DNA from: an uncultured Planctomycetales bacterium
Lineage (GTDB): Bacteria > Planctomycetota > Phycisphaerae > UBA1845 > PWPN01
Assembly: GCA_964615635.1 (NCBI GenBank)
Contig: CAZTQK010000001.1
Location: 22,790 to 84,323 of the forward strand
Length of the DNA stretch: 61,534 nucleotides
Reading direction: 5' to 3'
Shown: in pieces, positions 8,692 through 24,191 of the stretch
Layout: each line of letters starts with the position of its first letter
Numbering within the stretch: position 1 is the first letter of the stretch
Program-made: the position numbers and the translations under genes
The notes under the pieces: generated by a model
Database searches by the model: none
Seen by the model: only the letters and a program-made list of their open reading frames with translations
What the model was told of the DNA's origin: nothing

Positions 8692-9276
8692 ATGATTAGA
8701 GGCGATTACATCAAAATCCTGCTCCGGTCGAAGAAAACGGTCTTTTCCGTCAAGGACATCGCCTTGCTTTGGGGCGATCCGGGAACCAATGCCGCCCGTG
8801 CCCGCCTCAAATACTATGTCCAGAACGGCGACCTCCACCGCATCCGCCAAGGGCTCTACGCCAAAGACCGCAACTACGACCGTCTGGAACTTGCGACCCG
8901 GATCTTCACCCCTTCGTACGTCAGTTTCGAGACCGTCCTTGCAAAAGCGGGCGTCACGTTTCAGTTTTACAATCGAATCTTCGTGGCGACCTACCTGACC
9001 CGCGAAGTCGTCTGTGACGGCCAGACCTACCAATTCAGGAAAGTCAAAGACGTGATCCTGGCTAATTCAGAAGGCGTGGACAATTCCGGCGAACGCTCGA
9101 TCGCGACAGCTGAACGCGCATTCCTGGACACCCTGTATGTAAGCACCGACTATCATTTCGATAACCTGACGCCGCTCAACTGGGACAAGGTCTTCGCACT
9201 CCTCCCGCTTTATGACAACAAGCGAATGGCAAAACAGGTGAATGTCCTGCACAAACACCAACAGGCTGAAAGCTAA
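8692..9276 (+). CDS. AbiEi-family antitoxin/transcriptional regulator (type IV TA)
   Basis: 194 aa. N-terminal wHTH-like region (FSVKDIALLWGDPGTNAARARLKYYVQNGDLHRIRQGLY). It sits 6 nt upstream of an AbiEii-like gene. Confidence 0.75.
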   Translation: MIRGDYIKILLRSKKTVFSVKDIALLWGDPGTNAARARLKYYVQNGDLHRIRQGLYAKDRNYDRLELATRIFTPSYVSFETVLAKAGVTFQFYNRIFVATYLTREVVCDGQTYQFRKVKDVILANSEGVDNSGERSIATAERAFLDTLYVSTDYHFDNLTPLNWDKVFALLPLYDNKRMAKQVNVLHKHQQAES

Positions 9277-9282
9277 CCTTGT

Positions 9283-9981
9283 ATGACACTCAACACACCC
9301 GTGCATAAAAACATTCTTCTCCAGATTCTGAAAGACATCTATTCCGATACCTCCATTTCTCCTTTCCTTGGATTCAAAGGCGGCACCGCCGCTTTCATGT
9401 TCTATGGCCTGACGAGGTTTTCGGTAGACTTGGATTTCGACATTCTCGACGAGAGCAAAGAGGATATCGTCTTTGAACGGCTCGAACGCATTCTCAAGAA
9501 ATACGGAACCATCAAGCAGGCGAGCCGGAAGCGATTCAGCCTCTTCTTTCTTCTGTCGTATGAAGAGCACGCCCACAATATCAAAGTGGAAGTGAACCGC
9601 CGGTCGTTCGGATCGCGCTTTGAGCTCAAAACTTATCTTGGCGTCTCGATGCTCGTCATGGTTCGCGAGGACATGTTCGCACACAAGCTTATGGCCATGT
9701 TCGAGCGTGTCGGAAAAACTAGTCGGGACGTCTACGACGTGTGGTACTTCCTGCAGCATAACTGGCCGATCAACCGCGACATTGTCGAGCAGCGTGCCAA
9801 GATGCCGTTTAAGGACCTTCTCGCTAAATGCGTCACGGCTCTTGAAAACATGAACAATAAGAAGATCCTCGAAGGGATCGGTGAACTGCTTGACGCAGAC
9901 CAGAAAAAGTGGGCCCGCGAAAAGCTCAAAACCGACACAATCTTTCTATTAAAATTGAGAATCGAGAGCGAGGCAAAATGA
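9283..9981 (+). CDS. AbiEii/AbiGii-family nucleotidyltransferase toxin (DUF1814)
   Basis: FKGGTAAFMFYGLTRFSVDLDFD is a typical NTase Gly-rich/DxD region. Size and pairing with AbiEi also fit. Confidence 0.8.
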   Translation: MTLNTPVHKNILLQILKDIYSDTSISPFLGFKGGTAAFMFYGLTRFSVDLDFDILDESKEDIVFERLERILKKYGTIKQASRKRFSLFFLLSYEEHAHNIKVEVNRRSFGSRFELKTYLGVSMLVMVREDMFAHKLMAMFERVGKTSRDVYDVWYFLQHNWPINRDIVEQRAKMPFKDLLAKCVTALENMNNKKILEGIGELLDADQKKWAREKLKTDTIFLLKLRIESEAK

Positions 9982-10165: not shown

Positions 10166-12670
10166 ATGAAAGAAGCCCGATCTCGCATAAAAATCAACAG
10201 ACTACTGGAACAGGCCGGATGGCGCTTTTTCGACGATAAGAATGGACCGGCCAATATCCAGCTCGAACCGAACGTCAAGCTGACCGAGAAAGATATCGAC
10301 GCGTTCGGCCACGATTTCGAAAAGACAAAACATGGGTTTATCGACTTCTTGCTGATGGACGGACGCGGCTTTCCGCTTGTCGTACTGGAAGCCAAGAAAG
10401 AGGAGAAAGACCCTCTTGATGGCAAGGAGCAGGCTCGTCGGTATGCAAAATCCCAAAACGTGCGATTCGTCATTTTGTCGAACGGCAATCTACACTACTT
10501 CTGGGATTTGGAGCGCGGCAATCCAGAAATTATCACCGAGTTCCCGAGACAGGAATCCATAGTACACCGCAAGGCATTCACCCCCGACAATAGACGCCTG
10601 GCCGACGAAAAAGTCGATGAAGACTATATCGCCCTGACGCAAAACCCCAAGTTCAAGGATGATCCCAGGTATAAATCAGAAGAAACCCGCGCGAAGTATC
10701 TTTTTGATGAAGGCCTACGAGTACTCAGGCCCTATCAGTTGAGGGCCATTCATGCCCTGCAAAGATCTGCCGAGCAGGGGAATGACCGATTTCTATTTGA
10801 AATGGCGACCGGCACGGGCAAGACGTTAATCTCCGCCGCCATTATTAAGCTTTTTCTGAGGACAGGAAACGCCAAACGCATTTTGTTCCTGGTGGATCGC
10901 TTGGAGCTTGAAGATCAGGCACACAAGAACTTCGTCAGGTATTTGAAAAACGACTTCACTTCGGTAATATACAAACAAAACCGAGATAACTGGAAGAGCG
11001 CCGAGATAGTCATTACTACGGTTCAGAGTCTGTCATCACAAGACAAGTACAAGAAATTGTTCTCTCCAACAGACTTTGATTTAATCATTTCTGACGAAGC
11101 CCACCGGTCAATAGGAGGCAATTCACGAGCGGTATTTGAATATTTCGTAGGCTACAAACTCGGCCTGACTGCTACTCCGAAAAACTACCTAAAGAATATT
11201 GATCCTAACAAGCTGTCGAGTAATGATCCGAGGGCGTGGGAACGGCGTCAGCTTCTCGATACCTACAAGACCTTCGGTTGCGAAAGTGGAGAACCGACGT
11301 ATCGCTACAGTCTGCTGGACGGAGTTCGTGAAGGTCATCTCATCAACCCGATAGTCGCCGATGCTCGAACCGACATTACTGCTGAATTACTCTCCGAAAA
11401 GGGCTACGCCGTTATGGTGGAAAACGAAGACGGTGTCGAAACCGAGGAGTCGATGTTCGGGCGCGACTTCGAACGGAAGTTCTTCTCTGAGAAAACAAAT
11501 CAGGTTTTTTGCAGGACCTTCTTGGAGAATGCTCTGAAAGACCCTATCAGTGGAGAGATCGGCAAGAGCATCGTTTTCTGCGTCAGTCAGAAACACGCCT
11601 CGAAAATCACGCAGACACTGAACGTCATGGCCCACCAGCTATGGCCGGACAAGTACAATTCTGATTTCGCGGTTCAGGTGACGTCGAACATTCCCGGCTC
11701 GCAACAATTCACAATCAACTACGCCAACAATGTGTTGAATGGGCAGACCAGATTCATCGAAGGCTACAAGTCGAGCAAGACCAGGGTGTGCGTTACGGTC
11801 GGCATGATGACGACCGGATACGACTGTCAGGATATACTTAATCTTGGGCTCATGCGGCCAATCTTTTCGCCGACAGAGTTCATTCAGATTAAGGGCAGGG
11901 GCACCCGTAAGTTCGATTTCGAATATACGGACGAGTATGGCGAGCTTCACACCAAGAGGAAAGAGCACTTCAAGCTCTTCGATTTTTTCGCCAACTGCGA
12001 GTATTTCGAAGAGGAATACGACTACGATGAGGTATTGACCTTGCCTCCGCTTGGTCCTGGAGGTGATGGGGGTGGTGGCGGTGTCCATATCGATGAGATC
12101 GAGGTATTCGACCCTGATAAGGTCAAGACCTTAACGGAGACTCCGGTCGGATTCGAAGGAATGAAAGTCGACCGAAAGCTATTCGAGAAGGCCAAAGAAG
12201 AAATCCAAAGCGACTGCGAGATTAAGGACGCAATCGACAACGAACAATGGGATAAAGCCGTCCAGATAATACGGGAACGATACGAGGACAAGCCAGAGCT
12301 TTTTTTGAACTTAGAAAAGATCCGCAAGTCGGAGAACCTTGACCGTCGTCTGACTTGGCGGGAATTTCTGGAACGCATTTTCGGCCTGATCGACGTGTTC
12401 AAGTCTAAAGATGACAAGCTGGAAGAAGAGGTCGAGAAGTTCATTTCCGTATGCAAGCCCGAAAGCAGGTATGTCCCTTACATTAGAAACTATCTGAAGG
12501 CCTATGTCAGCGACGAGCGCTTCAGGGCCATTATCAATAGCAAGGAATTTCAGGAACTAAACTTCTACCCCGGCTTCTCATTAGCTGAATTCAAGGCCCT
12601 GAATGGATGGAAGGACAAAGTCCCGGAGTACGTAAAGGACTACGTGCCGGTTAACCAATATATGAGCTGA
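10166..12670 (+). CDS. hsdR: Type I restriction enzyme R subunit (N-terminal PD-(D/E)xK nuclease, SF2 helicase, EcoEI-R-like C-terminal domain)
   Basis: FIDFLL...VVLEAKKEE nuclease motif. Walker A EMATGTGKT, DEAH (ISDEAHRS), motif VI QIKGRGTR. An hsdM/S gene follows 4 nt downstream. Confidence 0.9.
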   Translation: MKEARSRIKINRLLEQAGWRFFDDKNGPANIQLEPNVKLTEKDIDAFGHDFEKTKHGFIDFLLMDGRGFPLVVLEAKKEEKDPLDGKEQARRYAKSQNVRFVILSNGNLHYFWDLERGNPEIITEFPRQESIVHRKAFTPDNRRLADEKVDEDYIALTQNPKFKDDPRYKSEETRAKYLFDEGLRVLRPYQLRAIHALQRSAEQGNDRFLFEMATGTGKTLISAAIIKLFLRTGNAKRILFLVDRLELEDQAHKNFVRYLKNDFTSVIYKQNRDNWKSAEIVITTVQSLSSQDKYKKLFSPTDFDLIISDEAHRSIGGNSRAVFEYFVGYKLGLTATPKNYLKNIDPNKLSSNDPRAWERRQLLDTYKTFGCESGEPTYRYSLLDGVREGHLINPIVADARTDITAELLSEKGYAVMVENEDGVETEESMFGRDFERKFFSEKTNQVFCRTFLENALKDPISGEIGKSIVFCVSQKHASKITQTLNVMAHQLWPDKYNSDFAVQVTSNIPGSQQFTINYANNVLNGQTRFIEGYKSSKTRVCVTVGMMTTGYDCQDILNLGLMRPIFSPTEFIQIKGRGTRKFDFEYTDEYGELHTKRKEHFKLFDFFANCEYFEEEYDYDEVLTLPPLGPGGDGGGGGVHIDEIEVFDPDKVKTLTETPVGFEGMKVDRKLFEKAKEEIQSDCEIKDAIDNEQWDKAVQIIRERYEDKPELFLNLEKIRKSENLDRRLTWREFLERIFGLIDVFKSKDDKLEEEVEKFISVCKPESRYVPYIRNYLKAYVSDERFRAIINSKEFQELNFYPGFSLAEFKALNGWKDKVPEYVKDYVPVNQYMS

Positions 12671-12674
12671 TTTT

Positions 12675-15248
12675 ATGTTAGATCAGGACACTAAACGACG
12701 CATAGACACAGCCCGGCAGATACTTGTCGGGAAGGTGCCCGACCCGAAAGCGCAGGTGGAGCAGATCACCACGGCGCTCATCTACAAATTCATGGATGAC
12801 ATGGATCGGGAGAACGAGGGCCTCGGCGGCAAAGCCAAATTTCTGACTGGCAAACTCAAGCAGTATTCCTGGGCTCGACTACTCAGTAAAGAACTCTCCG
12901 GGCAGGAGCGAATGCTCCTGTACATAGACGCGCTGAGTGAGTTTTCCAAGGCCGAGCAGATACCGGAGTTATTCAGAACGATATTCAAGGGAACGTTTCT
13001 CCCGTACAGGGACGCCGAGACTCTGAATCTGTTTCTCAAAGAGATCAACGGCTTCTCGTACGACCACAGCGAGGAGCTGGGTAATTCGTTCGAATATCTA
13101 CTTTCGATTTTGGGGGCGCAGGGCAAGGCGGGTCAATTCCGCACACCTCGCCACATCATCGACTTTATCGTTGAAGTCGTCGATCCCAAAAAGGACGACA
13201 AGATTCTGGACCCGGCATGCGGCACGGCAGGGTTTCTGATTTCCGCTTACAAGCATATTCGGCACCAGAATTCGTCCAACTTCAAGGCGGCGGAGTACGT
13301 ACCGAGCTTCTCCAAAAAGGGGCCCAACGACGTCGCCCTGATCGAAATGCAAAGCAACGGCGATTACCGGGGAGACAAACTCACTCCCGATGCCCGCAAG
13401 AGATTGGCCAAGAACATTATCGGATACGACATATCGCCCGACATGGTGCGGCTATCGCTGGTCAACATGTATCTGCATGGCTTCAATACGCCACAGATTT
13501 TCGAATACGACACGTTGACCTACGAAGACCGGTGGGGTGACAATTTCGATGTCATGCTGGCCAATCCGCCATTCATGAGTCCGAAGGGCGGTATCAGGCC
13601 ACACAAGCGTTTTCGCATATCTGCCAATCGTTCCGAAGTGCTGTTCGTGGATTATATCGCCGAACACCTGACGCTCAAGGGTCGGGCTGGTGTGATCGTG
13701 CCCGAAGGTATTATTTTTCAATCGGCCAATGCCTACAAAGATTTGAGAAAGATGCTCATTGAAGACAATTTCCTGTGGGCGGTCGTGTCGCTTCCGGCGG
13801 GAGTATTCAAGCCGTATAGCGGGGTCAAGACTTCAATCTTGTTTTTCGATAGGGAACGTGCCAAGCAAAACGATGAGATCTTGTTCGTCAAGGTCAGCAA
13901 CGATGGTTTCGACCTGGGCGACCAACGCCGGGCCATCGACGAAAATGACCTGCCGGAAGCATACAGAGTGTTGCAGGAATGGCAGAAGGGGAACAAGGTC
14001 GATTCGAGCATTGCTCAGCCGGTTAAGAAAAAGGCTATTTTGGATTCCAGAGACTACAATTTTACCGGGGATCGCTATCGACCGACGATTGCCAATGGCA
14101 AGACGCAATGGCCAATGGTGGCGCTTGGCGATTCCCGTTACTTCACAATAGAATCAGGGGGAACACCGGACTCCAGTAATCCCGAATTCTGGGAAGGCGA
14201 CATCAATTGGGTTACTTTGGTCGATCTTCCACAGGGCAGGTTGATAACGGAGATTAGCTCGACCAGTAGGAAGCTGACTTCGCTCGGGTTGAAGAAAAGC
14301 TCTGCGAAATTGCTACCACCTGATACGGTGTTGGTCTCATCTAGGGCAACGATTGGAAGAATCGGCATCGCCCGCGTCCCAATCGCTACAAATCAGGGGT
14401 TCAAGAACATAGTCATCAAGGATCATCAATCCGTTGAAGTGGCCTATGTCGCTTACGTGGTGTCACATTTGGTTCCAGATATGATTAGACTTGGTTCAGG
14501 AGGTACTTACAAGGAAATCTCCAAGACTAATTTCTCTAGATTGGAAGTCCCTCTCCCTCCGCTTGAGGTGCAGAAGGAGATCGTTGCGGAGCTTGACGGC
14601 TACCAGCGCGTCATAGACGGCGCCCAGCAAATCGTCGAGAACTGGAAACCGACCATTAAGATTGACTCAAAGTGGGAGATGCTAAAACTGGCAGATGTGT
14701 GTGAAATCAACCCTGAATCGGGGGACCCGAAGAAGCTCTTTGGGAAGCGAGATTTTGTGTATGTTGACATTGATTCCGTTCCGAACGGCGGTGGCCAACC
14801 TTCTTTTTCTCAAATTCTCTCCACTGATAAGGCTCCCAGTAGAGCAAGGCGCATTATCAGGAATGGAGATGTGCTACTTTCGACCGTGCGTCCAAACTTA
14901 AAAGCCTTTGCTATAGCATCAGAAATACCTGATCGAGTCATAGCTTCTACCGGTTTTGCTGTTCTGCGGCCGGATGCTCGCCGACTAGTTCCGCATTTTC
15001 TTTACTATATGATATTGGACGAATCATTAGTTGGTCAGATGATTAGTCGCATGGGAAAAGGATCTTACCCTAGCATAAACCAGACTGACGTTGCCGACTT
15101 GACCCTCGCTTTACCGCAAATCGACGTTCAGAAAGAGATTGTTGCTGGTATACAGACGGAGCAACATGCTGTCGAATCAGCCAAGGAGTTGATTAGAATC
15201 TATGAACAAAGAACAAGGAACAGATTAACTGAGGTTTGGGGGGAATGA
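12675..15248 (+). CDS. Fused type I methyltransferase-specificity subunit (HsdM-HsdS fusion, two TRDs)
   Basis: HsdM_N-like N-terminus, motif I LDPACGTAGFL, motif IV NPPFMSPKG. The C-terminal half has two target-recognition regions, each ending in the conserved helix LPPLEVQKEIVAELD / LPQIDVQKEIVAGIQ. Confidence 0.9.
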   Translation: MLDQDTKRRIDTARQILVGKVPDPKAQVEQITTALIYKFMDDMDRENEGLGGKAKFLTGKLKQYSWARLLSKELSGQERMLLYIDALSEFSKAEQIPELFRTIFKGTFLPYRDAETLNLFLKEINGFSYDHSEELGNSFEYLLSILGAQGKAGQFRTPRHIIDFIVEVVDPKKDDKILDPACGTAGFLISAYKHIRHQNSSNFKAAEYVPSFSKKGPNDVALIEMQSNGDYRGDKLTPDARKRLAKNIIGYDISPDMVRLSLVNMYLHGFNTPQIFEYDTLTYEDRWGDNFDVMLANPPFMSPKGGIRPHKRFRISANRSEVLFVDYIAEHLTLKGRAGVIVPEGIIFQSANAYKDLRKMLIEDNFLWAVVSLPAGVFKPYSGVKTSILFFDRERAKQNDEILFVKVSNDGFDLGDQRRAIDENDLPEAYRVLQEWQKGNKVDSSIAQPVKKKAILDSRDYNFTGDRYRPTIANGKTQWPMVALGDSRYFTIESGGTPDSSNPEFWEGDINWVTLVDLPQGRLITEISSTSRKLTSLGLKKSSAKLLPPDTVLVSSRATIGRIGIARVPIATNQGFKNIVIKDHQSVEVAYVAYVVSHLVPDMIRLGSGGTYKEISKTNFSRLEVPLPPLEVQKEIVAELDGYQRVIDGAQQIVENWKPTIKIDSKWEMLKLADVCEINPESGDPKKLFGKRDFVYVDIDSVPNGGGQPSFSQILSTDKAPSRARRIIRNGDVLLSTVRPNLKAFAIASEIPDRVIASTGFAVLRPDARRLVPHFLYYMILDESLVGQMISRMGKGSYPSINQTDVADLTLALPQIDVQKEIVAGIQTEQHAVESAKELIRIYEQRTRNRLTEVWGE

Positions 15249-15251
15249 GAT

Positions 15252-16685
15252 ATGTACCTTAGATCAATGACTTTAAACAATTTCAAGTGCTTCGAGTCAG
15301 GCGTGGATCCGCTGAACTTTGCGATGCCTGATGGTGCTACACTTGGAAGCGGATTAAATATCTTCGTTGGAGAAAACAACACCGGCAAATCTACGATATT
15401 TGAGGCCTTGGATTTCGTAAGAAACGGCCCGCCAAGAGGCAAGTCCATTAGTGACTTGAGAAACAAGGGAGCGTCTTCCGGGAACGGTGTATCGGTAACC
15501 ATTGATTTTGGCGGGGCAGTCACGGATGTCATTGATGCGTATGCGCAGAAGAACAAGCAGGCCGCCATAAAACAGTACGTGAGTGATAACACGTTGCGGG
15601 TCGTTCGTTCATCGGATAATGAGAAAGAACTGCTACTATGGGACGCGAGCGCAGGCGAATTCAAGAATGAATCTGGTATTGATGCTCCGATTAAGAAGTT
15701 GTTCGAACTGGACTTCATTTGGGCCGATACTAATCCGAATGATGAGGCGAAATTCGGAGCTACCACTATCTGCGGGAAGTTGCTCAAGGAGATATCGAAG
15801 AGTTTTGCCGAGACCGACGAATTCAAACATTTCCAGGACGCCTACGGCCATGCTTTTAACGATCCAGATAGCGTTCTCAAAAAGCAACTATGTGAAATTG
15901 AGAGGAGAACACAGGAAATATTTGAAGCTCAATTCGGAAAGGCAAGTATATCGTTTCATTTCGATGAGCTTCAAATCGATAATTTCTTTAAGAACACCAG
16001 AATAAAGGTTGATGATGGACTCGACACATATCTGGAAGAAAAAGGTAGCGGTATGCAACGAAGCGTTGCCCTTGCCTTGATCCAGGTATATGCGGAGAGT
16101 TTGATTAAGCACCCCGATAACCTAAAAGACAAGCCGTTTTTTCTTGTTATTGATGAGCCAGAAACATGTTTACACCCGATAGCGCAACTCAAACTCTTTG
16201 AGGCGTTGGCGGAGATCAGTAAGAGAAGACAGGTATTCGTCGCAACTCACTCTCCGTATATGTTCAAGAACTGCTTGTCGTTGAGTAGTGGGCTCTTTCT
16301 CTGCATCCGGGACGGTAGCAAAATCACCGTTACGGACGTTAGGGCAGGCGGTGTGGGTCTCTTTCCGTGGAGTCCTTCTTGGGGTGAGATTAACTATAAC
16401 GCGTACAACCTACCGACGATCGAGTTTCACAATGAGTTGTACGGGTTCCTGCAGGAACAGGCCCAGCTTATCCGTTGTGATGATTTTGATCAATACCTGC
16501 AAAACTGCAAACATATTACCCAGTTAAGACCGTATTCACGCAACGGTTCGACGGGTAATGTGACATTGTGTACGTACGTTAGGCATCAGATTCATCATCC
16601 TGAAAATACAGCAAATAGTCGTTTTGCAGATACGGAACTCAAGCAGTCGATTGATCTGCTGATAAACGCCATTAGAAATCCATAA
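15252..16685 (+). CDS. ABC/AAA15-21-type ATPase with a C-terminal domain carrying an Rx4H (HEPN-like) motif; PrrC/RloC-like candidate
   Basis: Walker A GENNTGKST, Walker B FFLVIDEPETCLHP, VFVATHSP. The C-terminal ~130 aa contain YVRHQIHHPEN. The gene is nested in the type I R-M locus, 3 nt after hsdMS. Confidence 0.75.
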   Translation: MYLRSMTLNNFKCFESGVDPLNFAMPDGATLGSGLNIFVGENNTGKSTIFEALDFVRNGPPRGKSISDLRNKGASSGNGVSVTIDFGGAVTDVIDAYAQKNKQAAIKQYVSDNTLRVVRSSDNEKELLLWDASAGEFKNESGIDAPIKKLFELDFIWADTNPNDEAKFGATTICGKLLKEISKSFAETDEFKHFQDAYGHAFNDPDSVLKKQLCEIERRTQEIFEAQFGKASISFHFDELQIDNFFKNTRIKVDDGLDTYLEEKGSGMQRSVALALIQVYAESLIKHPDNLKDKPFFLVIDEPETCLHPIAQLKLFEALAEISKRRQVFVATHSPYMFKNCLSLSSGLFLCIRDGSKITVTDVRAGGVGLFPWSPSWGEINYNAYNLPTIEFHNELYGFLQEQAQLIRCDDFDQYLQNCKHITQLRPYSRNGSTGNVTLCTYVRHQIHHPENTANSRFADTELKQSIDLLINAIRNP

Positions 16686-16686
16686 T

Positions 16687-16986
16687 ATGTCAGATAACTA
16701 TGACCCAAAACGAACTCGCAATCCCTTTGGCTCGGGTGATATAAAGCCGGTGATAAGGGGCGTCATAGGCAATGAGACTGCCAGCGAATTGGCGAGTATA
16801 CTTGTGGAAGAGGTGCAAACTTGTGTCCCCATAGGCAGCACCATCAAAGAAACCGTGCGGGTACAACTCGAAATCTTTTTGAAGAGAACGTTACGAAAGT
16901 TTAGCTACCCGTCCTACCTACAACTCCCGGGCACGGAGAATATCCTGAAGCAGGCAGAATTGTTCGCAGGAGAGTTGGCGGCTTAG
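16687..16986 (+). CDS. Small ORF homologous to the extreme C-terminus of type I HsdR (DUF3387-like); probable relic of a second hsdR
   Basis: TIKETVRVQLEIFLKRTLRKFSYPSYLQLPGTENILKQAELFAGE matches the HsdR tail pattern (..vRa.l...vkr.LrkyGYPPd......vl.QAEl). It starts 1 nt after the preceding stop. Confidence 0.45.
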   Translation: MSDNYDPKRTRNPFGSGDIKPVIRGVIGNETASELASILVEEVQTCVPIGSTIKETVRVQLEIFLKRTLRKFSYPSYLQLPGTENILKQAELFAGELAA

Positions 16987-16996
16987 AGTAATAGGT

Positions 16997-18265
16997 ATGA
17001 AGAAGGTAAGAAATAGCAAGACGCTTCGCACTGACACCATCCCGGTAGACAGCTTTTGGAATCTGGGTACAGAGCGAGAACAACGTATGCACAGGATTCA
17101 TGCCTACCCTGCGAAATTTCCGGCGTTTATCACCACTAAGGCGTTGAATTACGCAAAGCGCAGAGGTCGGAAGGTGAACCTTTTGGCGGACATTTTCTGT
17201 GGTTGCGGTACGGTTGCCTATGAGGCCAAAAGAAACAGTATAGACTTCTGGGGTTGCGATATCAACCCAGTGGCGACCATGATTGCTAAAGCGAAGAGCC
17301 AAAGTTATGAAACATGGCGTCTACAGGATTACTTCGAGAAGATCGTTGACGTTTTTGAACATGCCCACTTAGTTTTGCGACCCTACGGGGACGCCATTGA
17401 TAGAATTAAGTATTGGTATGACGCAAATCATTATCGCGAACTTTCGCGACTCCTCGCTGCCATTGAGGAGACAATTCCGGCGCAGAGCAAGTACCATGTG
17501 TTCTTCTTAGTGGCGTTTTCCAATATACTGAAGCCGACTTCTCGTTGGCTGACAAAGTCTATTAAACCGCAGCTTGATCCGAACAAGCAAGCGCAGCGAG
17601 TACTTGCGGCGTTTCAGAATCAGTGTGAATTTGCCATTACTGCGAGTGCCGAGAGCGACGCGAAGGTTGGCTCACATGTGAAGATCGAAACAGCCGATTT
17701 TCTCTCTTCGAGGTTGAGTAGACCTCAGGTAGACATGATAGTGACTAGTCCTCCGTACGTCACCTCCTACGAGTATGCTGATTTGCATCAGCTATCAGCT
17801 CTTTGGCTCAATCCAACAAAGGACTACAGGACCTTTCGATATGGTTCTATCGGGACGCTTCACCACGACTCTGAATTCGAATCCGATGTTGAGGAGCTGA
17901 ACACCAGCGGCAAGACAATTGTCGAGAGTCTACAACGGGTAGATATGGCGAAGTCACGATCTGTAGCGAAATACTTTGTAGACATGCAAGCCGTGGCAAG
18001 ACAGTCTCTTGAGATGTTAGTAGACGGTGGATTAGCGCTATTTGTAATTGGCAATACCCGGTATTCGGGAGTTAAGATAGACAACGCCCATCACCTTGTT
18101 GAATCCATGCTTGAGGCAGGATTTGATGATGTGAGAATAGGAAAACGCAGAATACAGACAAAGATCCTGACGCCTTATCGAGACAAGGCGGGCCGCTTTA
18201 CATCGGACGGCCGCGGGCGTAAGGTCTACGGTGAGGAGTTCGTCGTGATTGGACAAAGATTATGA
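16997..18265 (+). CDS. DNA methyltransferase (N4-C or N6-A; SPPY catalytic motif)
   Basis: AdoMet motif DIFCGCGTVAYEA, then about 200 aa later MIVTSPPYVTSYEY. Confidence 0.85.
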   Translation: MKKVRNSKTLRTDTIPVDSFWNLGTEREQRMHRIHAYPAKFPAFITTKALNYAKRRGRKVNLLADIFCGCGTVAYEAKRNSIDFWGCDINPVATMIAKAKSQSYETWRLQDYFEKIVDVFEHAHLVLRPYGDAIDRIKYWYDANHYRELSRLLAAIEETIPAQSKYHVFFLVAFSNILKPTSRWLTKSIKPQLDPNKQAQRVLAAFQNQCEFAITASAESDAKVGSHVKIETADFLSSRLSRPQVDMIVTSPPYVTSYEYADLHQLSALWLNPTKDYRTFRYGSIGTLHHDSEFESDVEELNTSGKTIVESLQRVDMAKSRSVAKYFVDMQAVARQSLEMLVDGGLALFVIGNTRYSGVKIDNAHHLVESMLEAGFDDVRIGKRRIQTKILTPYRDKAGRFTSDGRGRKVYGEEFVVIGQRL

Positions 18266-20733
18266 ATATCGAAAACGCTGGCAAGAAGATTGATTCGATC
18301 GAGGTATCGATTAGCTATCGTATCATTGAGTTGTTTTCGGCAGGTCTTTATTCAAGTCCCAATAAGGCCTTTGAGGAACTCGTCTGTAATTCGTATGACG
18401 CGTTTGCAGATCAGGTGGCGGTCTATGTGTCCCCAGATCTCGCTGCGGACGATGCCTGTATTTGGGTTTGTGATAATGGGGAAGGCATGGATCGCAAAGA
18501 ACTTAAGGACCTGTGGATGGTTGGAACGTCCTTCAAGCGAGTCGATGCTAAACGTGATAAGCGGCGACTGCAAATCGGACAATTCGGAATTGGCAAGCTT
18601 GCTACGTATGTCCTGGCAAACAGACTCACATATTTGTGCAAGAAAGGCGATAAATATCTGGCCGCAACGATGGACTACCAGCTGATCAAAGACAACGATA
18701 AAGAGAAACTCCTACTTGATGAGCGCGAACTCACTGCAACAGAAGCAGAGCAGTCAATCCAGCAATACCTACTCACTGGAGGGAAGAGCTATGTTCCATT
18801 TGACATGTTCGGCAAGAAAGCTCAGAAGTCATGGACATTTGCTATCATGACCTCCCTCAAGACTAAGGCATCCGAGATAAGAGAAGGCCGACTGAAATGG
18901 GTTTTGCGCACAGCACTTCCTCTGAATCCAGGATTCAGGCTTCACTATAATGGGGTTCTAGTTGAATCCTCCAAGATAAACAAGAAGCTGATGAAATCAT
19001 GGGTTCTGGGAAAGAATGACTCTGTGGCGGAATCGCTCGATTTTGCGAATTGCCGCACGACGCGGAAGGATCACTACATTGATTTCGATGCACTTCAGGG
19101 AGTATATGGCCGAATTGAGTTGTACGAGGATTCGTTGGTCGACTCCACAAAGTCAGCAGGTCTCGGTCGCAGTCACGGGATCTTTCTTCTTGTGCGGGAT
19201 CGTCTGATAAATATCGACGACCCGTTGCTCGGTATGGAGGCGTTCTCACATGGGGCATTCAATCGCACAAGAATGGTGATCCACGCAGATGGACTTGATA
19301 ACAACCTAACCTCCACACGTGAATCCATTAAGGATTCGGTACCCTTTCGGCAGCTGAAGGAATACCTGAAGAAGAAGTTCAATAACGAAGTTCGGAAGCA
19401 CTACTTCGAGGAGGAGATTAAGCGGGATCGACAGCGAAGCATAGATTACCGCATGTCTCAGACGTCGCTTACCTTGTCAAAACGCCCGCTCATCGTTTTT
19501 GCCGAGAAGTTCTATGACAATAAAATTAAGAGTCCACTCTTAATTCAAAAGCCTAACAAGGAGAAAAGAACGGAGCTCCTTTCGAATCTTCGGGATGACT
19601 TGACCACCGAGCAATCACTCATAAAGGATATCGAATGGAGTATATTGGACATCGGGGAACCAATCGCCAAGCTCGACCTAGAAAGTCGCGTGCTCAAGAT
19701 GAATTTGATGCATCCATATATCGCCAACTATAACGATGCCTATAAGAGCACGCTGCCGCTTGAGTTTATGGCGATCACCGAGGTGTTGACAGAAGCTTAT
19801 CTCTATGAACAGGGAATTGACGAAGCGCTGGTGAACTTCATTATGAAGAGACGCGACAATACACTAAGGGAGTTGTCATTATCCGACCGTGAAGGTGCGC
19901 CGGCAGTAGCGCAGATGCTAAAGGACTCGGTAGCAGACAGTACCGGACTTGAGGATGCAGTATATAGGGCATTTCTGTCATTAGGTCTTGAAGTAACTAA
20001 GATCGGCGGGAATGGCAAACCTGACGGCAAAGCAGAGGCGATTCTTGGTTACAGCAGCGCGTCGCAATCAAATAACTTTTCGTTCACATATGACGCTAAA
20101 AGCACTTCAAAAGAGAGGATTCAGGCAGGGACCGCCAAATTGTCGACAATACTGCGTCATAAGAAAGATTACGGGGCTGATTATGCTGTGGTTGTAGCTA
20201 TTGATTTTGAGGGGGCAAATGACGATAAGAGCGCTATTGCGAAAGAGTGCAAACAACAAAGAGTGACGGCCATCCGAGTTGTTGATTTGATTCGGATTCT
20301 CCTACTGTCCGCACCGAAGCAGATCGGCCTTGCAAAACTAAAGGAAATGTTCGACTCATGCTATTCGCCTGCAGAGGTATGCTCTTGGATTGATTGTGTG
20401 GAAGGATGTACAGTTAATCCAGGACCAATTAAAGAAGTACTTACTACTATTTATTCGCTCCAAAAGGATGACACGGAACCGCCAGAGCTTGCCTCCGTTC
20501 GTCAGAAATTGATTACAGATTACAAGACCACACTCTCCAAGTCTGACATTCGATCGATTTTGGAGAGTCTTCAAGTATTTGTCCCTGGCTTCATAAGCAT
20601 CGAAGGCGAAAAAGTCGGAATCAAAGCGAGACCTGATCGGGTGCAAGATGTGATTTCAAGTACCATTAACAACATTCCGAGTAACATTCAGAAGATGTAC
20701 TTGAAGGCGTTCTCTGTGAAATCTAAGAAATGA
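18262..20733 (+). CDS. GHKL (HATPase_c_3 / MORC-like) ATPase fused to a C-terminal PD-(D/E)xK restriction-endonuclease-like domain
   Basis: N-box EELVCNSYDA, G1 VCDNGEGMD, G2 GQFGIGKLA. C-terminal GNGKPDGKAEA...FSFTYDAKSTS is Mrr-like (D...D/E-x-K). The ATG overlaps the methyltransferase stop (ATGA). Confidence 0.8.
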   Translation: MNIENAGKKIDSIEVSISYRIIELFSAGLYSSPNKAFEELVCNSYDAFADQVAVYVSPDLAADDACIWVCDNGEGMDRKELKDLWMVGTSFKRVDAKRDKRRLQIGQFGIGKLATYVLANRLTYLCKKGDKYLAATMDYQLIKDNDKEKLLLDERELTATEAEQSIQQYLLTGGKSYVPFDMFGKKAQKSWTFAIMTSLKTKASEIREGRLKWVLRTALPLNPGFRLHYNGVLVESSKINKKLMKSWVLGKNDSVAESLDFANCRTTRKDHYIDFDALQGVYGRIELYEDSLVDSTKSAGLGRSHGIFLLVRDRLINIDDPLLGMEAFSHGAFNRTRMVIHADGLDNNLTSTRESIKDSVPFRQLKEYLKKKFNNEVRKHYFEEEIKRDRQRSIDYRMSQTSLTLSKRPLIVFAEKFYDNKIKSPLLIQKPNKEKRTELLSNLRDDLTTEQSLIKDIEWSILDIGEPIAKLDLESRVLKMNLMHPYIANYNDAYKSTLPLEFMAITEVLTEAYLYEQGIDEALVNFIMKRRDNTLRELSLSDREGAPAVAQMLKDSVADSTGLEDAVYRAFLSLGLEVTKIGGNGKPDGKAEAILGYSSASQSNNFSFTYDAKSTSKERIQAGTAKLSTILRHKKDYGADYAVVVAIDFEGANDDKSAIAKECKQQRVTAIRVVDLIRILLLSAPKQIGLAKLKEMFDSCYSPAEVCSWIDCVEGCTVNPGPIKEVLTTIYSLQKDDTEPPELASVRQKLITDYKTTLSKSDIRSILESLQVFVPGFISIEGEKVGIKARPDRVQDVISSTINNIPSNIQKMYLKAFSVKSKK

Positions 20734-22037: not shown

Positions 22038-24191
22038 ATGGTCGCGGTGTCGATCGCACTGGTTGCCATTCTCAGTCTCACGCTCGGCGTTCTCTCGCTG
22101 CGCGGAAGGGATCGCGTCAGGCTCACGTTCAGCATCTTCTCATTCATAGTCGCAGCCTGGGTTCTGGTCAACTTCGTATTCCAAGTTACGGGTGACGACG
22201 CATTAGTCCCCAGTTTCTACGCCTTGGGTGCACTAGCAATCTGCTCAGGTCTGATTTTCTCATTCTACTTTCTTTTCGAGCAAGTCCACCCGCTGGTTAC
22301 GATTTCAGTCTCGCTTCTTGGTCTCATCAACTTTGCCCTGTCCCTGTTTTCGGACCTGGTCATCAGACGTGTTCTCAAAGTGTATGCAACCGGCTATGAG
22401 GCTGAAACCGGGCCGTACTTTTTGGGGTATTCCCTTTTCATCGTTGCCGGAGTCCTGGCTTTCTTTGTCGTCATGTCATACCAGCGACGGCGGTCCGAGG
22501 GTATCAAACGCAACCAGATCAGCTGGATCATGGCGGGCTTCGGCGCCTTCGGCCTCGTCACGGCAGTCGTAAGCTTCATCCTGCCGCTTTTTGGGGTGTG
22601 GAACCTGACCTCCTTTGACAGCCCGAGCGCGATCTTTTTCGTTTTGGCGTCCTTTTACGCCATTACCCGGTACCGCCTTTTCGATCTTCGCATCGTCGTC
22701 AGGAAGTCAGTCTTCTATCTCATGCTCGCGGTCTTCGTTTTCGTTGTCTACTACCTCAACGTCTATCTGGACGAGAACGTGTTCGGCGGCCAGTATACGG
22801 TCGGCGCGTACCTGTCTGCCCTGGTCATCGCGCCGTTGTTCCTCTATGCATTCAGCGCCGTGAGCAAGTTCCTGCAAAAGGTGGTAAATAAGTACTTCTT
22901 CACCAGCCTTTATGACCCGCAGGCGACTATCAAAGAGTTCGCGAGCAGGATTTCCCAGACTATCAGGCTCGACGAGGTGACGGCAGTCATACTCGACACG
23001 ATCCAGAATACGCTCCGGTCAGATGCCGTGGCGCTCGTTCTTAAAGAGAAACCCGACAAGAACCGTTTTGCGGTGGTACAGACAAGGCAGTTCGATGCGG
23101 CAAGCCTTGAAACGCTTAATGCCCGCGAACCCTTCAGGGACTACGTGATGCCAAGCCGCCAGCCTGTCATCGTTGAGGAGGCGGCGGCCGGGCAACGGGG
23201 GACTCCGGAACTTCGAAACGCGTTTACATCGCTAAAACACTCGGGTATGGAAGTTCTGCTACCGCTGAATGTGAAAGACAGCCTCATCGGCGTGGTAGTC
23301 ATAGGTCGCAAGGCTACCAAGGAGGCGTACACCAAAGAGGACATCGAGCTTTTGGGAACACTTGCCAACCAGGCGTCCGTTGCGGTCCAAAACGCCCGTC
23401 TCTACAACTCCATGGAAGAGATCGTTGCAGAGCAGACGCGGGATATAAAGGAAAAGAACTTGCACTTGGAAGAACTCCTGAAGATGAAGTCCGAATTCCT
23501 TTCAATCGCGTCCCACCAGTTGCGGACACCATTGACGGCAATCCGGGGCCTTTTGTCGATGCAGGCTGACGGAGATCTCGACAGGCTTCCGGAAGACCAG
23601 CGACGGCAAGAACAACGCCACATGCTTGCCGCGGCAGACCACCTGAACAACATAGTAAACGACCTGCTTGACGCCATGGAGCTTGAGGGCGGCCAGACGG
23701 CAGTGAACTTCGCTCCGGTCGACCTTGGGGCACTTATCGCGGAGGCGATAGGGGAACTGAAGCCGGATTTCGACAAGAAAGGTCTGAGCATTACCTTTGA
23801 AAAGCCTGCCCAGCCAGTCCCGGCCGTACCCGGGGAAACAAAATACCTGCGGGAGGCAGTCATGGACGTGATCGACAATGCGGAGAAGTATACCAACAAG
23901 GGCGGAGTAACGATCAGCCTTTCGAGCGACGGCGCGAACGCGGCAGTCACGGTCAAGGACACCGGCATCGGAATACCGAAATCCGACTTTCCGAGGCTGT
24001 TCAAAAAGTTTTCCCGGGGCGAGCGATCTGCGTTCCAGCACGCCAACGGCTCTGGCCTTGGGCTCTTTATTATCCGCAACATTATGAACCGGCACCACGG
24101 CGACGTGCGGATCGAAAGCGAAGGCGAGGGCAAGGGAACTACCGTCACTCTTACCGTGCCGTTGAAGCAGCCCAAAGTCGCGCGTAACTGA
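22038..24191 (+). CDS. Sensor histidine kinase (N-terminal multi-TM 7TM-type sensor, GAF, HisKA, HATPase_c)
   Basis: About 8 hydrophobic helices in the first 300 aa. H-box FLSIASHQLRTPLTAI, N-box VIDNAEKYT, G1 VKDTGIGIP, G2 GSGLGLFI. Confidence 0.9.
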   Translation: MVAVSIALVAILSLTLGVLSLRGRDRVRLTFSIFSFIVAAWVLVNFVFQVTGDDALVPSFYALGALAICSGLIFSFYFLFEQVHPLVTISVSLLGLINFALSLFSDLVIRRVLKVYATGYEAETGPYFLGYSLFIVAGVLAFFVVMSYQRRRSEGIKRNQISWIMAGFGAFGLVTAVVSFILPLFGVWNLTSFDSPSAIFFVLASFYAITRYRLFDLRIVVRKSVFYLMLAVFVFVVYYLNVYLDENVFGGQYTVGAYLSALVIAPLFLYAFSAVSKFLQKVVNKYFFTSLYDPQATIKEFASRISQTIRLDEVTAVILDTIQNTLRSDAVALVLKEKPDKNRFAVVQTRQFDAASLETLNAREPFRDYVMPSRQPVIVEEAAAGQRGTPELRNAFTSLKHSGMEVLLPLNVKDSLIGVVVIGRKATKEAYTKEDIELLGTLANQASVAVQNARLYNSMEEIVAEQTRDIKEKNLHLEELLKMKSEFLSIASHQLRTPLTAIRGLLSMQADGDLDRLPEDQRRQEQRHMLAAADHLNNIVNDLLDAMELEGGQTAVNFAPVDLGALIAEAIGELKPDFDKKGLSITFEKPAQPVPAVPGETKYLREAVMDVIDNAEKYTNKGGVTISLSSDGANAAVTVKDTGIGIPKSDFPRLFKKFSRGERSAFQHANGSGLGLFIIRNIMNRHHGDVRIESEGEGKGTTVTLTVPLKQPKVARN

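Follow-up and report, generated by a model that had tools for sequence, protein, structure and literature searches.

An OLD-type ABC ATPase with a C-terminal domain carrying an invariant Arg/His motif, encoded in a type I restriction-modification operon of an uncultured Planctomycetales bacterium

Introduction

OLD-type ATP-binding cassette (ABC) ATPases are among the commonest sensors in bacterial immunity, and are found in OLD, Gabija, PARIS, Septu and retrons. The Old protein of phage P2 has been reported to be an abortive tRNase (bioRxiv 10.64898/2026.07.10.737580), and OLD-ABC modules with alternative nucleases have been described as back-up effectors (PMC12839542; bioRxiv 10.1101/2024.01.29.577857). 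PrrC and RloC each combine a C-terminal RNase with an ABC ATPase that gates it (PMC3710099). An N-terminal ABC ATPase is also joined to a C-terminal HEPN domain in the ERFG_01251 ABC-HEPN group, which is present in E. coli and occurs sporadically in the CRISPR-Cas neighbourhoods of Neisseria and Kingella; its HEPN domain has been termed 'classical, close to MNT-associated HEPN' (PMC3710099). Here we describe a gene of an uncultured Planctomycetales bacterium that lies at 15252-16685 of the stretch of DNA analysed (the window, 61,534 nucleotides; positions 22,790 to 84,323 of contig CAZTQK010000001.1, assembly GCA_964615635.1). An initial, sequence-only reading had taken its product for an ABC ATPase with an R-x4-H motif in a distinct C-terminal domain, nested in a type I restriction-modification (R-M) locus, and had proposed a PrrC/RloC-like anticodon nuclease, possibly of a separate family.

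We find that the gene belongs to a large family, made up of stand-alone proteins of the defence-island kind and spread over hundreds of clusters and many phyla, in which the Toprim effector has been exchanged for a domain that has no detectable relative and carries an invariant, RNase-like Arg/His pair.

Results

Analysis of the window confirmed that 15252-16685 is a real, open reading frame (ORF) of 477 codons, with the motifs of the sequence-only reading at their expected places. The protein can be divided into an ATPase module and a distinct C-terminal domain of about 115 residues, which is kept across the homologue family. The parts of the gene are as follows; invariance of ATPase residues refers to 93 sequences.

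15252-16685, forward strand: whole gene, 477 residues, OLD-type ABC ATPase with a novel C-terminal domain (open ORF and its translation)
15252-16337, forward strand: ABC ATPase module, residues 1-362, including a helical insert at residues 173-228 (Pfam, PADLOC, Foldseek, identity to P2 Old)
15369-15395, forward strand: Walker A motif GENNTGKST, residues 40-48 (G40, N42, N43, G45 and K46 invariant)
16044-16061, forward strand: ABC signature-like motif GSGMQR, residues 265-270 (G265, G267 and R270 invariant)
16137-16163, forward strand: Walker B motif FFLVIDEPE, residues 296-304 (E302, P303 and E304 invariant)
16245-16256, forward strand: H-loop THSP, residues 332-335 (H333, S334 and P335 invariant)
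16338-16682, forward strand: C-terminal domain, residues 363-477, about 115 residues, candidate effector (AlphaFold on the domain alone)
16422-16445, forward strand: EFHNELYG, residues 391-398, in the second helix of the C-terminal domain, with H393 and E395 as candidate catalytic residues (conservation)
16578-16607, forward strand: VRHQIHHPEN, residues 443-452, containing R444-[N/H]-x-x-[H/D]-H449 at a helix end and the start of the following loop (conservation and predicted secondary structure)

Walker A, ABC signature, Walker B and H-loop are all intact, in agreement with an ABC-type ATPase, and every catalytic ATPase motif was invariant in the 93 homologues. Residues 1 to about 345 matched Pfam AAA_15 (7e-31), and also AAA_21 and AAA_23. 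The best PADLOC model was Old (1e-50), of which only positions 23-330 of 578 were covered, corresponding to the ATPase half. A family profile searched against PDB sequences retrieved OLD (6p74), AriA, retron/Septu ATPases and GajA, and Foldseek with the full-length AlphaFold model (93-sequence alignment; predicted local distance difference test score, pLDDT, 88; predicted template-modelling score, pTM, 0.84) retrieved OLD 6p74, GajA and Rad50/SMC heads. The helical dimerisation insert that is a hallmark of OLD was seen in this model as helices at residues 173-228. The best match in a tblastn search of phage genomes was P2 old, with 29% identity over residues 38-338. The Pfam scan gave no match of the ATPase to AAA_13, to which PrrC and RloC belong, and a scan of the bacterium's own genome with AAA_13 (PF13166) matched another locus (G000:C58, 4e-158) and not the ATPase gene. 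Because the matches are to AAA_15, the Old model, P2 old and OLD/GajA structures, with none to AAA_13, the ATPase is, as judged from its sequence, of the OLD type (AAA_15) and not of the PrrC/RloC type (AAA_13).

The locus matched in the AAA_13 scan lies on a different contig of the same genome and encodes a genuine, full-length AAA_13 (RloC/PrrC-type) protein of 794 residues (G000:C58:14952-17105; locus L128, 1501-3654). An Abi_2 protein (G000:C533, L156) and a classical HEPN protein (G000:C116, L104) are encoded in this genome as well.

We then aligned the C-terminal domain from 168 sequences, 27 of them from the loci surveyed below and 141 representing clusters at ≤50% identity. R444 and H449 were each present in 168/168, and the R-x4-H arrangement picked out by the sequence-only reading is thus no chance match. 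The residue that follows the arginine (position 445) was Asn or His in 164/168, and L396 was kept in 166/168. H393, E395, H448, E451 and N452 showed 92-99% conservation: His was found at 393 in 160/168 and at 448 in 161/168, position 395 was Glu in 158/168 and Asp in 9/168, position 451 was Glu in 157/168 and Asp in 8/168, and N452 was present in 154/168. Divergent members from Firmicutes and Actinomyces have Asp in place of H448 and keep both R-N-x3-H and H393. Mutual-information analysis of covariation, applied as a test of contact between the H393/E395 helix and the R444 helix, gave no usable signal: the informative residues are invariant, and the joint change of H448D with Y397F/N394I was confined to one clade.

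AlphaFold modelled the C-terminal domain alone with a pLDDT of 93. The predicted elements are a helix at 377-385, a helix at 390-404, a helix at 409-418, a β-hairpin at 425-438, a helix at 439-448, a loop, and a final helix at 460-475. H393 and E395 sit in the helix at 390-404, R444 to H448 lie in the helix at 439-448, and H449-P-E-N opens the loop that leads to the last helix. The helix at 409-418 is the least conserved part of the domain. In HEPN domains as described in the literature, core helix 3 ends in the motif, which runs on into the loop before helix 4; helix 2 contributes an acidic residue, and a variable insert separates helices 2 and 3 (PMC3710099). The C-terminal domain family shows the sequence hallmark of HEPN, R-x4-6-H with a polar residue after the arginine, and the AlphaFold model shows its layout as well, with the motif in the corresponding place, E395 in the second helix, and the helix at 409-418 together with the β-hairpin at 425-438 as the insert. 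We conclude that the Arg/His motif is genuine and as strongly constrained as a motif can be, with a HEPN-like layout in primary and secondary structure.

To define the family, the C-terminal domain alone was searched against 1.84 billion representative proteins (E≤1e-3). It was present in 555 clusters at 50% identity, and in nearly all of them it formed the C-terminus of an AAA_15 protein of about 450-500 residues. Full-length homologues of about 480 residues made up more than 1200 clusters, with 48-81% identity among the top 120, and came from many phyla, including Candidate Phyla Radiation (CPR) bacteria, Chloroflexota, Neisseria, Actinobacillus, Pseudomonadales and E. coli. A few members carry extra N-terminal parts, such as Bro-N. 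One of these, the metagenomic protein P0255 (577 residues), has an additional Bro-N domain (phage BRO DNA-binding) ahead of the ATPase and the C-terminal domain.

Some of the representatives are short proteins of 138-146 residues that appear as stand-alone C-terminal domains. These may be gene fragments and not a separate architecture, because split or frameshifted copies occur among the loci (L007, 9998-11440; L029, 10001-11484; L025; L030). Such homologues are either truncated or, when split, divided over two ORFs, which suggests frequent inactivation and fits a costly or toxic gene.

We surveyed the genomic contexts of 37 species-level loci that encode the C-terminal domain, annotating neighbours by iterated profiles and Pfam. 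The settings observed were the following, with positions as numbered within each locus.

Inside type I R-M: hsdM-ATPase-PDDEXK-hsdS (L001)
Inside type I R-M: hsdM-hsdS-ATPase-...-hsdR, the position of prrC (L002, L011, L018)
Inside type I R-M: hsdM-ATPase (L032)
Inside type I R-M: ATPase directly before hsdR (L048)
Near hsd genes: L020, L036
Directly after type III mod-res and before tex: oral Streptococcus (L027, L028, L033; mod-res upstream of 10001, or of 4736 in L033)
Between cas3 (HD-DEAD-Cas3_C) and cas5/cas8c (Csd1) of a type I-C CRISPR-Cas operon: Actinobacillus genomosp. 2 (L006, 7639-14064)
Beside other defence genes: GmrSD with DUF2130, Schlafen, Mrr-nSTAND3, HNH, DUF4011 helicase-nuclease
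Beside KAP NTPases/McrBC: L085
Lone insertion among housekeeping genes: between matE and murB in Neisseria
Lone insertion among housekeeping genes: between trpE and trpG, with a YhcG nuclease
Lone insertion among housekeeping genes: in the his operon
Lone insertion among housekeeping genes: adjoining gyrA, hrpA, pepN or ppc

No partner gene was conserved across the loci examined; the family gene mostly stands alone, the neighbours vary, and many loci have no defence neighbour. The E. coli homologue is rare, being found in 10/5426 complete genomes, where it is annotated as an 'ATP-dependent nuclease', and the enterobacterial cluster has 264 members. It lies immediately after the integrase (L093, L094; 8171-11785), at the edge of a prophage-like element next to rcnR that carries capsid and tape-measure genes. 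A place adjacent to the integrase is typical of defence morons.

Linkage to R-M was found to be a recurrent property and not a defining one. About 6-8/37 species-level homologues are embedded in or adjacent to hsd loci. We estimate roughly that this is a tens-fold enrichment, far above chance, given how small a share of a genome is made up by hsd loci. The nearest relative of the window protein, at 81% identity, has no R-M neighbours. In a maximum-likelihood tree from a quick search, at least 5 gains or losses are needed to explain the members embedded in R-M loci, which are no more clustered than shuffled labels (212/500). The family tree is incongruent with host taxonomy, and the types of context are scattered over it. 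Embedding in hsd loci is facultative and recurrent, and is not a coupling that defines the family. Linkage of homologues to hsd genes was borne out as far as repeated embedding and, in some loci, the prrC position are concerned, and an obligate functional tie to R-M is not supported, given the low fraction of hsd-linked homologues, the closest relative without R-M neighbours and the scatter on the tree.

We also noted more distant AAA_15 ATPases (L065, L060, L061, L058, L059) that match the ATPase part only (23-40% identity), without a match to the C-terminal domain. These adjoin hsdR, hsdM or hsdS. It seems that OLD-type ATPases as a whole have repeatedly found a place in type I R-M loci.

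In the window, the gene lies in a co-directional stack that comprises AbiEi/AbiEii, an EcoAI-like hsdR, hsdM-S, the ATPase gene, a 99-residue ORF, a type II-like methyltransferase and a GHKL ATPase of the BbrUII/HgiDII kind. An identical stack was found again on independent metagenome contigs. The type I R-M genes around the ATPase gene are listed below.

10166-12670, forward strand: hsdR, 834 residues, EcoAI-like (Pfam ResIII and HSDR_N; NCBIfam restrict_EcoAI, 1.5e-72)
12675-15248, forward strand: fused hsdM-hsdS, 857 residues (Pfam N6_Mtase, 4e-54, and two Methylase_S)
16687-16986, forward strand: 99-residue ORF, the C-terminal tail of another HsdR type (Pfam T1RH-like_C, 1.3e-9)

The ATPase gene starts 3 nucleotides past the fused hsdM-S gene, which ends at 15248, and the 99-residue ORF begins 1 nucleotide past the ATPase stop codon. 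With hsdR and hsdM-S upstream and this ORF downstream, the gene is indeed nested in a type I R-M operon. The ORF matched the extreme C-terminus of HsdR only, its best match being the last 72 residues of the L002 HsdR (46% identity), whose gene lies downstream of the ATPase homologue in that locus. The upstream, EcoAI-like hsdR is of another type. Judging from these matches, the 99-residue ORF is probably the remnant of a lost hsdR that formerly lay behind the ATPase gene. Its resemblance to the tail of an HsdR encoded behind an ATPase homologue supports a history in which the ATPase gene would have arrived within an hsdM-hsdS-ATPase-hsdR cassette and hsdR would have been lost afterwards.

Two further gene pairs of the stack were annotated. 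A pair for an AbiEi-like antitoxin and an AbiEii nucleotidyltransferase toxin lies directly upstream of hsdR (8692-9981, forward strand). Downstream (16997-20733, forward strand), the stop codon of a methyltransferase gene (N6_N4_Mtase-like, 422 residues) overlaps the start of the gene for the 823-residue GHKL ATPase, which contains HATPase_c_3 and gave a weak match to BbrUII/HgiDII restriction enzymes. The two form a second R-M-like pair within the same operon.

Discussion

We favour, at about even confidence and on the analysis presented here, a reading in which the protein is an autonomous, OLD-like abortive-infection protein whose C-terminal domain would be a new, probably metal-independent RNase effector. 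The effector is placed in cis because no partner gene is conserved. We regard the module as autonomous and mobile, with the type I R-M operon as one of several interchangeable homes; a place in such an operon probably provides back-up or co-transfer benefits, and not PrrC-style silencing by the R-M enzyme.

For the trigger, the catalysis, the substrate and the defence phenotype, we propose a mechanism modelled on those of P2 Old, PrrC and RloC. The OLD-type ATPase would serve as sensor and switch, holding the effector off until a phage cue is perceived, for which a phage protein, aberrant DNA or an anti-restriction factor are candidates. The cue would change the nucleotide-dependent dimeric or oligomeric state of the ATPase, and this change may unmask or assemble an active site formed by R444, H449, H393 and E395 in the C-terminal domain, an α+β domain of about 115 residues found where OLD and GajA have their Toprim nuclease. 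Assisted by H393 and E395 of the neighbouring helix, the invariant R444/H449 pair (R-N/H-x3-H) could carry out HEPN-like chemistry on a scaffold that is possibly a highly derived HEPN, or else a new one. Metal-free cleavage of RNA (tRNA or mRNA) would then halt translation and abort the infection.

We put forward more tentatively, and as rather doubtful in its full extent, a bolder version in which the C-terminal domain is an RNase that needs no metal and has a new fold, one that is not HEPN and has arrived at its Arg/His/Glu chemistry by convergence, the family being a widespread single-gene class of abortive infection that adds a back-up layer wherever it plugs in, interchangeably at type I/III R-M, CRISPR-Cas or prophage hotspots.

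A number of results weigh against an RNase effector in a defence protein. The C-terminal domain (residues 363-477) had no Pfam match at E≤10, and neither had those of 27 family members; it also had no match among PDB sequences. Foldseek with the pLDDT-93 model gave no significant match to any known fold, and no HEPN domain or other nuclease was among the matches listed from PDB (best E 0.9, template-modelling (TM) score <0.25) or BFVD (best E 0.35), TM scores staying below 0.27 throughout. When the profile of the 168 C-terminal domains was compared by hhalign with home-made profiles of PF05168 HEPN, DUF4145, Abi_2 and the RloC C-terminus, probabilities were below 1% (0.6% for RloC), in a set-up of low power, in which the known HEPN families matched each other at 7% at best. 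The helices of the domain, at 9-16 residues, are short compared with classical HEPN bundles. Moreover, for about half of the homologues the surroundings are housekeeping genes and no further defence gene is near; such settings fit the behaviour of class 1 OLD but constitute weaker contextual evidence. Foldseek can overlook small helical domains, so that its null result weakens membership of HEPN without excluding it. The HEPN-like RNase motif of the sequence-only reading holds with respect to all hallmarks in primary and secondary structure, while none of Foldseek, Pfam and profile comparison could confirm membership of the fold; the domain has either a new fold or a HEPN fold that is strongly derived.

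Other candidates for the domain were searched for and set aside. A search of PHROGs gave only ATPase-level matches to families of unknown function and none for the C-terminal domain. There was no family match to Toprim, and the domain, at 115 residues and mostly helical, has no DxD. Toprim, HNH and PD-(D/E)xK are ruled out by Pfam and Foldseek, in which no such signature or fold appeared. Sub-threshold matches of two Streptococcus C-terminal domains to Pfam DUF7000 (3e-4 and 0.013) were judged spurious, since true DUF7000 proteins from Bacilli have no R-x4-H and bear no likeness to the domain.

It is possible, though we consider it improbable, that the C-terminal domain is non-catalytic and acts as a sensor, adaptor, dimerisation or nucleic-acid-binding module, perhaps a winged-helix-like one, the protein being an ATP-driven switch or clamp for an effector encoded elsewhere. 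The effector could then be a neighbouring R-M or Cas nuclease or a host nuclease, comparable to the partner nucleases held by the C-terminal tails of PtuA, AriA and NsnB; the ABC ATPases of Septu, PARIS and Menshen are known to bind separate effectors via C-terminal helical domains (PMC12065111). The failure of Foldseek to detect a nuclease fold is in line with this possibility, as is the enrichment of winged-helix proteins (CzrA/ArsR, MarR, ScpB and DndE) among its top, non-significant matches, and the order of elements, three helices followed by a β-hairpin, resembles a winged helix-turn-helix. However, a partner gene conserved across contexts is lacking, and the PtuA, AriA and GajA chains present in PDB were not retrieved with the model of the domain. 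The invariant residues (R, H, H, E) are such as serve in catalysis and are found on the second helix and the helix after the hairpin, whereas the would-be recognition helix at 409-418 is the part that varies most.

A metal-dependent DNA nuclease of a new fold, in which H393, H448, H449, E451 and N452 would act as metal ligands and which would degrade phage or host DNA as an analogue of OLD, appears unlikely to us. The ATPase is nearest to those of the OLD/GajA DNases, the conserved His, Glu and Asn residues are grouped around HHPEN, and the PGAP label 'ATP-dependent nuclease' in E. coli records would agree, although that label derives from the ATPase part alone. On the other hand, the domain has no Toprim, HNH, PD-(D/E)xK or other metal-nuclease signature or fold, and P2 Old itself has been reported as a tRNase (bioRxiv 10.64898/2026.07.10.737580). 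The pattern of substitution also favours Arg/His acid-base chemistry, as Asp is tolerated at H448, and E451 and N452 vary in divergent members, but R444 and H449 never change.

Finally, the anticodon nuclease of the PrrC/RloC type envisaged by the sequence-only reading, physically held in check by the type I R-M enzyme encoded next to it and freed when a phage anti-restriction factor disables that enzyme, is in our view very unlikely, for although the 3- and 1-nucleotide gaps point to translational coupling in the hsd operon, the prrC position recurs after hsdS and before hsdR in three loci (and directly before hsdR in L048), the window has its HsdR-tail scar and the R-x4-H motif is invariant, the ATPase is AAA_15/OLD without an AAA_13 match in a genome that has a real AAA_13, RloC-like gene elsewhere, the C-terminal domain does not contain the RRxLE...HxxSH of AAA_13 proteins, hsd neighbours are absent for the 81%-identity relative and most homologues, the R-M-embedded members are unclustered with at least 5 independent gains or losses, and the family is found in type III R-M and CRISPR loci too.

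The public names of these proteins, 'AAA family ATPase' or 'ATP-dependent nuclease', are derived from the ATPase alone. If the C-terminal domain is an RNase, as we favour, it would constitute a new type of effector, possibly with a new fold, for abortive infection directed at tRNA or mRNA. The family would also offer a clean single-gene model, directly testable through its natural E. coli alleles, that could address both how OLD-type ATPases sense infection and why they are nested inside R-M and CRISPR loci.

Comparison with known systems

The class 1 OLD proteins (P2 Old and Thermus scotoductus OLD, PDB 6p74) provide the best sequence, profile and fold matches and share the type of ABC ATPase with its helical insert. 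They also share a single-gene lifestyle, often isolated or prophage-borne (PMC10568477). They differ in that the Toprim nuclease of OLD is absent from the present family and is replaced by an unrelated 115-residue R-N-x3-H domain.

PrrC, the EcoprrI-linked anticodon nuclease, and RloC follow a similar logic, in which a small C-terminal domain with essential Arg and His residues is joined to an ABC ATPase, and some members of the present family, including the window gene, are found in type I R-M operons at the position of prrC. In contrast, the ATPase of PrrC and RloC is of the AAA_13/Rad50-like type and not AAA_15/OLD. Their C-terminal layout, which we read from the C-termini of the AAA_13 proteins L126-L129, is RRxLE...HxxSH, with Arg/Glu first and His about 30 residues later, whereas that of the present family is EFHNELYG...IRNxIHHPEN. 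There is also no obligatory linkage of the present family to R-M. The kinship with PrrC/RloC proposed by the sequence-only reading is not upheld by either domain, and its suspicion that this might be a distinct family proved right.

The two-gene OLD-ABC systems (PARIS AriA/AriB, Septu PtuA/PtuB, HEC-01 to HEC-03 and MADS MAD3) have a related ATPase, as seen from partial PADLOC and NCBIfam matches, and are likewise nested in other immune systems (bioRxiv 10.1101/2024.01.29.577857). They use a separate, adjacent nuclease (Toprim/DUF4435, HNH, NERD or PIN), unlike the fused candidate effector of no known type described here.

The present family may be the ERFG_01251 group, with which we compared it by description only. 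Both have members in E. coli and Neisseria, and one member of the present family lies between cas3 and cas8c in Actinobacillus. The identity fits poorly, because the HEPN domain of that group is called classical and the domain described here has no detectable similarity to PF05168 or to a solved HEPN.

On present sequence evidence, then, the protein appears to resemble class 1 OLD, PrrC and RloC in its logic and yet to lack the defining features of each, having no Toprim, no AAA_13 and no PrrC-type C-terminal domain. Taken together, our analysis suggests that the family belongs with the ABC-ATPase-gated nuclease defences, as a variant of them.

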